From assembly GCF_003334255.1 (NCBI RefSeq), contig NZ_QOWU01000131.1: a DNA stretch of 2,698 bases; one strand, written 5' to 3'. A program made the position numbers and the translations under genes. The number at the start of each line of letters is the position of its first letter. The stretch's first letter is position 1. The notes under the pieces are model-generated. The model was not told the origin of the DNA. It saw nothing but the letters and a program-made list of their open reading frames with translations, and did no database searches. Shown here in pieces: positions 869-1,186 of this stretch. This stretch comes from Escherichia coli (GTDB lineage: Bacteria > Pseudomonadota > Gammaproteobacteria > Enterobacterales > Enterobacteriaceae).

Positions 869-1186
869 TCATCGCCCGGTTCTTGAGCTGATAATGCTTT
901 GCGTCAGCAGCTGCCAGCCCTCTTTCTGTTGCCCGTACTTGTCCTGATACCTGTTTACCTGCAAGTTTCCGTGCACCAGAATCAGATCGCCTTTTCTGTG
1001 TTTTGCCAGTTCTTCGTGCTGCTTCCCGAATGAAATAAGGTAAAGCCACATTGTGGTTGGCTGTTCTGCGCCATGGCAGGGTAGTGATACCGCCAGTTGT
1101 GCCGTTGTGACGTTGGTTCCTTTGGTTGTTCTCCTTGTGTTCGGGTCTGCTGCCAGTCGTCCATCTGTTGCAACCTGTGTTGGCAT
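869..1186 (-). CDS. single-stranded DNA-binding protein-like OB-fold protein, short form without C-terminal acidic tail
   Basis: ATG at 1186-1184 is preceded by GGGAGA (1197-1192); stop TGA at 871-869. The 105-aa translation aligns by eye with the OB-fold core of E. coli SSB recalled from memory: VATDGRLAADPNTRR against VILVGNLGQDPEVRY, and WLYLISFGKQHEELAKHRKGDLILVHGNLQVNRYQDKYGQQK against [43 protein letters not shown]. The protein ends right after the OB domain, with no Gly/Gln/Pro linker and no acidic DDDIPF-type tip. This is fold-level resemblance only and has not been searched. Confidence 0.6.
   Translation of the reverse strand: MPTQVATDGRLAADPNTRRTTKGTNVTTAQLAVSLPCHGAEQPTTMWLYLISFGKQHEELAKHRKGDLILVHGNLQVNRYQDKYGQQKEGWQLLTQSIISSRTGR

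Follow-up and report, generated by a model that had tools for sequence, protein, structure and literature searches.

A P2-like prophage of Escherichia coli encodes a 105-residue protein that is confirmed, by sequence profiles and a predicted structure, as a genuine member of the SSB (single-stranded DNA-binding protein) family with a confident OB barrel. The gene occupies positions 869–1186, stop codon included, on the minus strand of the 2,698-nucleotide stretch analyzed (the window), which is the right-hand end of the prophage. The product ends in ...QSIISSRTGR at the boundary of the OB core, and both the disordered linker and the acidic DDDIPF-type tip are missing. Comparison of homologous loci indicates that the gene is maintained under purifying selection and is not a fresh frameshift; full-length homologues at 77–98% identity are all 105 residues long and use the same stop codon. 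The P2-like prophage lineage that carries this tail-less SSB is rare.

Family, fold and DNA-binding residues

The open reading frame runs from an ATG to a TGA codon and coincides exactly with positions 869–1186. It is preceded by a strong Shine-Dalgarno sequence, read directly as GGGAGA at 1192–1197, which lies 5 nt from the start codon (1186–1184). The protein matches Pfam family PF00436 (E = 2.1e-13, 50.6 bits, model positions 3–96 of 104) and the phage SSB family phrog_44 (E = 1.4e-22), and a phmmer search with it retrieved 26 solved SSB sequences at E < 0.05. An AlphaFold2 model built with an alignment of 98 relatives as input has a mean pLDDT of 95 and a pTM of 0.84. Its secondary structure follows the OB-fold layout (strand-strand-strand-strand-helix-strand-strand), with the helix between strands 3 and 4, and each of the top 50 PDB matches listed by Foldseek is the core of a bacterial SSB, with a TM of up to 0.82 and an rmsd of 2.2–2.4 Å. 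The NCBIfam model for ssb (TIGR00621) gave 47.4 bits, below its curated cutoff of 53.95, and all NCBI equivalog models scored far under their cutoffs; a score below the ssb cutoff is expected of a core-only protein. The SSB OB fold that the initial annotation had recognized by eye was recovered by profile and structure searches alike.

RefSeq names the product (WP_096122283) "single-stranded DNA-binding protein," and both it and the neighboring WP_001537149 bear the Pfam label "SSB" in a table that supplements Rousset et al. 2022 (PMC9122126), the main text of which discusses neither. The gene is therefore one already annotated as SSB, its fold and family are textbook, and tail-less paralogues are known. 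Mitochondrial SSB and PriB are familiar tail-less proteins of the SSB type. The phage protein is real, but within this well-known family it is a variant of a fairly ordinary sort.

Over the core, the protein is 29% identical to E. coli SSB. Residues W47, F53, and Y80 align with W54, F60, and W88 of E. coli SSB, and three of the four aromatic positions that stack on ssDNA (W40, W54, F60, and W88 in E. coli) are kept; among the 98 aligned relatives F53 is invariant and W47 nearly so. The equivalent of W40 is absent, its position falling in the L23 loop, which is four residues shorter in the phage protein. The subunit-interface residue H55 of E. coli SSB is replaced by leucine. In the E. coli SSB sequence used for the alignment, W40, W54, H55, F60, and W88 fall at the positions of the standard numbering.

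A dimer was modeled as two copies of the protein joined by a 30-residue Gly-Ser linker, with the alignment likewise duplicated. The AlphaFold2 prediction reached a pTM of 0.79, with a pLDDT above 90 in each domain and a disordered linker. Its best Foldseek matches in the PDB are the two-OB SSB chains of Thermus and Deinococcus, with both domains aligned at moderate similarity (TMt 0.52–0.58, rmsd 6–7 Å), and the model suggests an SSB-like dimer.

The end of the protein and the history of its tail

The alignment to E. coli SSB spans residues ~9–99 of the latter; by extrapolation, the last residue of the phage protein corresponds to position 114–115, the junction of OB core and linker. No acidic or tip-like peptide was found 3′ of the stop codon in any frame. 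The length of 105 residues is constant beside three different downstream cargos, although the DNA past the stop codon differs. Pairwise dN/dS values for the gene are 0.21–0.31 in five of six pairs, at dS of up to 0.37, and resemble those of neighboring genes; the sixth pair, with only 12 substitutions, gave 0.61. Constant length at 77–98% identity together with dN/dS below 1 argues for a maintained gene. The initial annotation had held that the protein stops right after the OB core with neither linker nor tip, that the truncation is native, and that no tail lies in another frame, and each of these statements agrees with the results above. The possibility that a longer SSB at the locus was cut short to a pseudogene was rejected, since close homologues are of equal length, dN/dS is below 1, and other frames hold no remnant of a tail; no close homologous locus has a longer intact SSB.

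Several variant alleles were observed. Two complete genomes (locus L003, 4035–4292, and hit H47) share a 60-nt in-frame deletion between GRLA and ARLA repeats; residues 13–32 are lost, and the 85-residue product has an affected OB core. Frameshifted fragments of the gene occur in other assemblies (P0005 and P0007–P0009), one of them on 51 contigs. The existence of deleted and frameshifted alleles in some prophages indicates that the gene is dispensable at least in the lysogen. The final two residues vary among prophage variants (GR, AR, or AI).

When 1.84 billion representatives were searched exhaustively with HMMER, one cluster at 96% identity came up, the next closest relatives being at ~47%. 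Relatives at 40–50% identity have in common an N-terminal MTAQI..YGRL motif, an LAVSLPC loop, and a C-terminal SARTxR motif, and most of them continue for a further 20–60 residues to a classic tip such as FDDEIPF. Because the relatives at 45–50% identity are mostly longer and end in a DDxIPF-type tip, the tail of the phage protein was probably lost from a tailed ancestor. As to whether homologues are tail-less too, all full-length ones at 77–98% identity are, but those at 45–50% are mostly tailed. In the 98-sequence alignment, 56 sequences have a tip and 17 are tail-less, defined as having at most 12 residues past the core; a number of the gene calls from metagenomes may be incomplete. Beyond the query's clade of four, most tail-less sequences have tailed nearest neighbors, which implies that tails have been lost several times independently.

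The closest proteins outside the clade, at 45–50% identity, are the SSBs of PICI-like and capsid-forming-PICI-like satellites and of small plasmids of Enterobacterales (for example WP_000126687, WP_032418513, and the SSB of Sodalis plasmid pSG2). They share LAVSLPC..W..AFGK and SARTxR with the phage protein and, like it, are encoded downstream of a replication gene, in their case directly. Annotated examples follow a primase/helicase gene in the satellites, and the pSG2 gene adjoins mobilization genes. These SSBs are 136–159 residues long, and close relatives such as P0010 have a linker of roughly 20–60 residues and an (F/P)DDxxPF-type tip, both of which the shorter phage protein lacks. The satellite and plasmid elements employ primase/helicase initiators, whereas the P2-like prophage has a gpA-type nicking enzyme. 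Integrated elements likewise harbor further relatives without a tail. From these gene neighborhoods, the proteins constitute an SSB family of mobile elements that is linked to the replication genes of those elements, and of which the P2-like clade is a tail-less offshoot.

A link between tail loss and rolling-circle replication was considered and is unsupported, one tail-less relative (P0064) being encoded directly after a primase gene. A tailed, 136-residue member of the same family was observed in a capsid-forming-PICI-like satellite (L015; E. coli O145 p1RM9154-C1, 30987–41304) with the gene order integrase, AlpA, Icd-like, RepA helicase, SSB, PerC, major capsid, head decoration, and small terminase; the record is labeled a plasmid, and the satellite lies next to phoQ.

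Among characterized proteins, the core of E. coli SSB (residues 1 to ~115; the chymotryptic core, PDB 1eyg) belongs to the same Pfam family, has the same OB fold, and ends at the same point. The phage protein differs from full-length E. coli SSB in lacking the 56-residue linker and the acidic tip, in being phage-encoded, and in being non-essential to the cell. PriB, a dimeric SSB-derived primosome protein of 104 residues, is a tail-less OB fold of nearly the same size; its genomic context is unlike that of the phage gene. BLASTP aligned nothing between the phage protein and PriB at E values up to 100. A PriB-like identity was discarded on the grounds of this absence of BLASTP similarity and of the top 50 listed fold matches, all SSBs and none PriB. 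Bacillus subtilis SsbB is a 113-residue tail-less SSB that protects ssDNA and for which no interaction with RecO was detected (PMC3384303). Like the phage protein it is an OB core without the C-terminal interaction tail, and it is a weak match (PDB 3vdy, E = 0.0018); unlike the phage protein it is a chromosomal, competence-induced Firmicutes paralogue. That SsbB is no closer to the phage protein than ordinary SSBs are points to independent losses of the tail.

Operon, prophage and hotspot

Four genes precede SSB on the minus strand. The 3′ part of gpA, the P2-type replication endonuclease, occupies 2174–2698 and runs off the window (RefSeq CDS 14174–16687 in the chromosomal locus L001). It is followed by RefSeq-annotated genes for a 134-residue protein of unknown function (1773–2177; phrog_14984, E = 2e-80), for which Pfam gave nothing significant, and a 56-residue protein of unknown function (1554–1724; phrog_14672, E = 6e-35), and then by a gene for a 112-residue winged-helix homolog of lambda Ren that is annotated as MarR family (1219–1557; phrog_142, "Ren-like exclusion protein," E = 1e-28). 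The spacing is tight: the gpA stop codon (2174) and the start of the 134-residue gene overlap by 4 nt, a 48-nt gap separates the latter from the 56-residue gene, whose stop and the start of the Ren-like gene share 4 nt, and 32 nt separate the Ren-like gene from SSB, which is packed closely behind in the orientation of gpA. This five-gene order is kept in loci L001–L005. No sigma-70-like promoter was found on the minus strand of the window, which makes co-transcription with gpA from an early promoter the simplest reading. SSB is presumably the last gene of an early operon and co-transcribed with gpA, to judge from gene order and spacing; its final position in the operon, proposed in the initial annotation, is consistent with these features and with the four other loci.

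A hairpin with a 10-bp stem and a 6-nt loop can be folded at 834–859 on the minus strand, 9 nt past the SSB stop codon (−19.6 kcal/mol, z = −2.6). Five nucleotides beyond it begins a U-rich run, AUUUCUUUUUU in the minus-strand RNA (819–829). A consensus terminator scan did not call the 834–859 hairpin, a result attributable to the 5-nt displacement of the U-run from the stem. The stem is retained in L003 and L005; L002 and L004 have different hairpins there and no U-run. In this form of the locus, transcripts of the early operon likely end at the hairpin. The terminator that had been placed directly after the gene therefore stands as to the hairpin but not as to a canonical signal, the U-run being displaced and the scan negative.

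The Ren-like protein shares 42–43% identity with the Ren proteins of many lambdoid and Stx phages and matches Pfam MarR_2 (E = 4e-5). In lambdoid and Stx phages ren follows replication gene P, and the gene described here is likewise downstream of a replication gene; a Ren homolog in this position in a P2-like phage was unexpected.

The supposition that the gene resides on a mobile element was correct, the element being the P2-like prophage. Over its full length the window is 99.3% identical to chromosomal loci including L001. In these loci RefSeq places, in order, the phage portal gene, a plus-strand hypothetical gene, and then on the minus strand SSB, the MarR-family regulator, two hypothetical genes, and gpA. 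Among 5426 complete E. coli genomes, 27 carry the SSB gene and 22 contain at least 80% of the window, and IMG/VR holds only six related loci. A tblastn search of 50,697 deposited phage genomes found no close homolog of the SSB, with one distant match in a Faecalibacterium phage.

Two other segments of the window were noted. About 60 nt inside gpA (2583–2648) are kept at 83–89% identity in over 2300 genomes of E. coli, as well as in many Klebsiella and Salmonella phages of the P2-like type, and the remainder of the window is not conserved in this way; this segment may be a replication origin or nick region such as P2 has within gene A. Non-coding DNA on the portal side (60–205) has several GTGCA/GTGCG motifs and one stretch rich in G+C, and 66–202 aligns at 74% with DNA of Enterobacter phage phiT5282H that bears no annotation. 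The G+C-rich stretch resembles the reverse complement of the P2 cos sequence, and 60–205 is a candidate cos/packaging region. An Rfam scan of the window gave no match.

The interval between gpA and gpQ is a hotspot of anti-phage cargo and the site of P2 tin and old (Rousset et al., PMC9122126), and SSB is the last conserved backbone gene before its variable part. Between the SSB stop codon and the portal gene, the window and L005 carry a convergent plus-strand gene (283–819; RefSeq CDS) for a 178-residue hypothetical protein, likely membrane-associated. The same interval holds a TumE-family toxin-antitoxin pair in L002 (1951–3738), with one more hypothetical gene, and in L003 (3167–3915), and a DUF4760 gene with a hypothetical gene in L004 (2230–3951). 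Homology to the window ends exactly at the SSB stop codon in hits H44 and H45 and within a few bases of it in L002; L003 retains the hairpin as well. A break at or near the stop codon (869–871; same positions in L002–L004) implies that the recombination boundary of the hotspot abuts the end of the gene. The C-terminal 90 residues of the 178-residue protein match phrog_1416, and its gene is 65% identical in DNA to one that phages 434 and 2B8 carry for a "putative membrane protein."

The P2 Tin/Old locus lies in the same phage region as SSB, between gpA and the portal gene (PMC9122126). The genes are not homologous, and SSB differs from tin and old in being backbone in the orientation of gpA, with the variable cargo beyond it. 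That SSB is itself swapped hotspot cargo was dismissed, since gene order is kept across L001–L005 while the genes past the stop differ. Assignment to a known defense system likewise failed, since the only match to PADLOC models, BrxA (E = 0.019), carries no meaning.

Proposed function and alternatives

We infer, with confidence a little above even, that the protein is an accessory phage SSB that is made with gpA, coats the strand displaced in rolling-circle replication, and recruits none of the host's SSB partners. The SSB would be co-transcribed from the early operon with gpA, the rolling-circle initiator, and would probably assemble canonically as a dimer or tetramer of OB folds. It would then coat the ssDNA displaced during phage replication, which would be protected while exonuclease I, RecJ, RecQ, RecO, PriA, Pol III chi, and similar proteins are not recruited: an OB core with neither linker nor tip would leave the DNA it covers unable to attract partners of the SSB C-terminus. 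B. subtilis SsbB is a precedent for a coat without recruitment and supports the accessory role. Counting against it, a tail-less coat on the displaced strand could get in the way of priming on the lagging strand, a step that makes use of the SSB tip. The missing W40 equivalent, the score below the ssb cutoff, the moderate similarity of the linked dimer to two-OB SSBs, the decayed alleles in some prophages, and the fact that P2 and 186 replicate without an SSB of their own also weigh against this role.

A tip-less OB core encoded in an early lytic operon might instead act as a dominant negative that competes with host SSB or forms mixed tetramers with it, stripping forks and repair sites of tip-dependent partners and so lowering the host's replication and repair while the phage grows lytically. 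To our knowledge, E. coli SSB without its tip cannot support growth, a point in favor of such a takeover. One account describes the tip as a hub for at least 17 partner proteins (PMC7145534), which points the same way. The low core identity (29%) and the H55-to-Leu replacement, however, make mixed tetramers doubtful, and most relatives in the family keep the tip, which speaks for a role in replication and not in poisoning the host; we judge the takeover improbable. Still less probable, in our estimate very much so, is that the gene is a functionless, decaying relic, a captured tailed SSB of the satellite/plasmid type that was truncated by recombination at the hotspot boundary. Homology between loci does break at the SSB stop codon, relatives at 45–50% identity are tailed, and deleted and frameshifted alleles exist. 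Decay is hard to reconcile, however, with dN/dS of 0.2–0.3 in most pairs at dS of up to 0.37, with a length of 105 residues kept beside three cargos, and with a strong Shine-Dalgarno sequence, an intact fold predicted at high confidence, and conserved DNA-binding aromatics.

The remaining alternatives concern phage defense. The protein might have a defense-related role, possibly together with the Ren homolog, either masking the phage's replication intermediates from abortive-infection sensors that read such intermediates or phage SSB–ssDNA complexes, or excluding superinfecting phages by way of their ssDNA-binding proteins, the latter by analogy with P2 Tin, which acts via T4 gp32, an ssDNA-binding protein. 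The upstream gene is a homolog of Ren, by which lambda escapes Rex exclusion, and Retron-Eco8, AbpAB, Hna, and DARNA are defense systems that sense phage SSBs or the ssDNA presented by them. The locus also borders the gpA–gpQ anti-phage hotspot of tin and old (PMC9122126). We nevertheless hold such a role unlikely, given that PADLOC yields no meaningful match, that SSB is conserved backbone and not swapped cargo, that it is apparently co-transcribed with lytic genes and the promoter scan found no lysogen promoter, and that the association of SSB with Ren is confined to one phage lineage. The presence of a Ren homolog beside SSB motivates a further reading, to which we assign a low probability: the two genes would form a counter-defense module in which a "silent" OB core hides phage ssDNA from tip-recruited nucleases and from abortive-infection sensors, among them Rex-like systems, Retron-Eco8, AbpAB, Hna, and DARNA. 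If such a module exists, the repeated, independent tail losses in the mobile-element SSB family would reflect adaptation and not neutral change.

In practical terms the stakes are modest, the gene being rare, its fold textbook, tail-less paralogues known, and an SSB annotation already in place. Neither P2 nor 186, the model P2-like phages, is known to encode an SSB, so that phages with the gene and phages without it can be compared simply by means of this lineage. Its relevance is heightened by the recent finding that several defense systems recognize phage SSBs or the ssDNA they present. Should the accessory SSB indeed coat phage ssDNA and leave host partners unengaged, a temperate phage would have carried out a natural SSB-deltaC experiment, one that would help to separate the protective role of SSB from its role as a hub.
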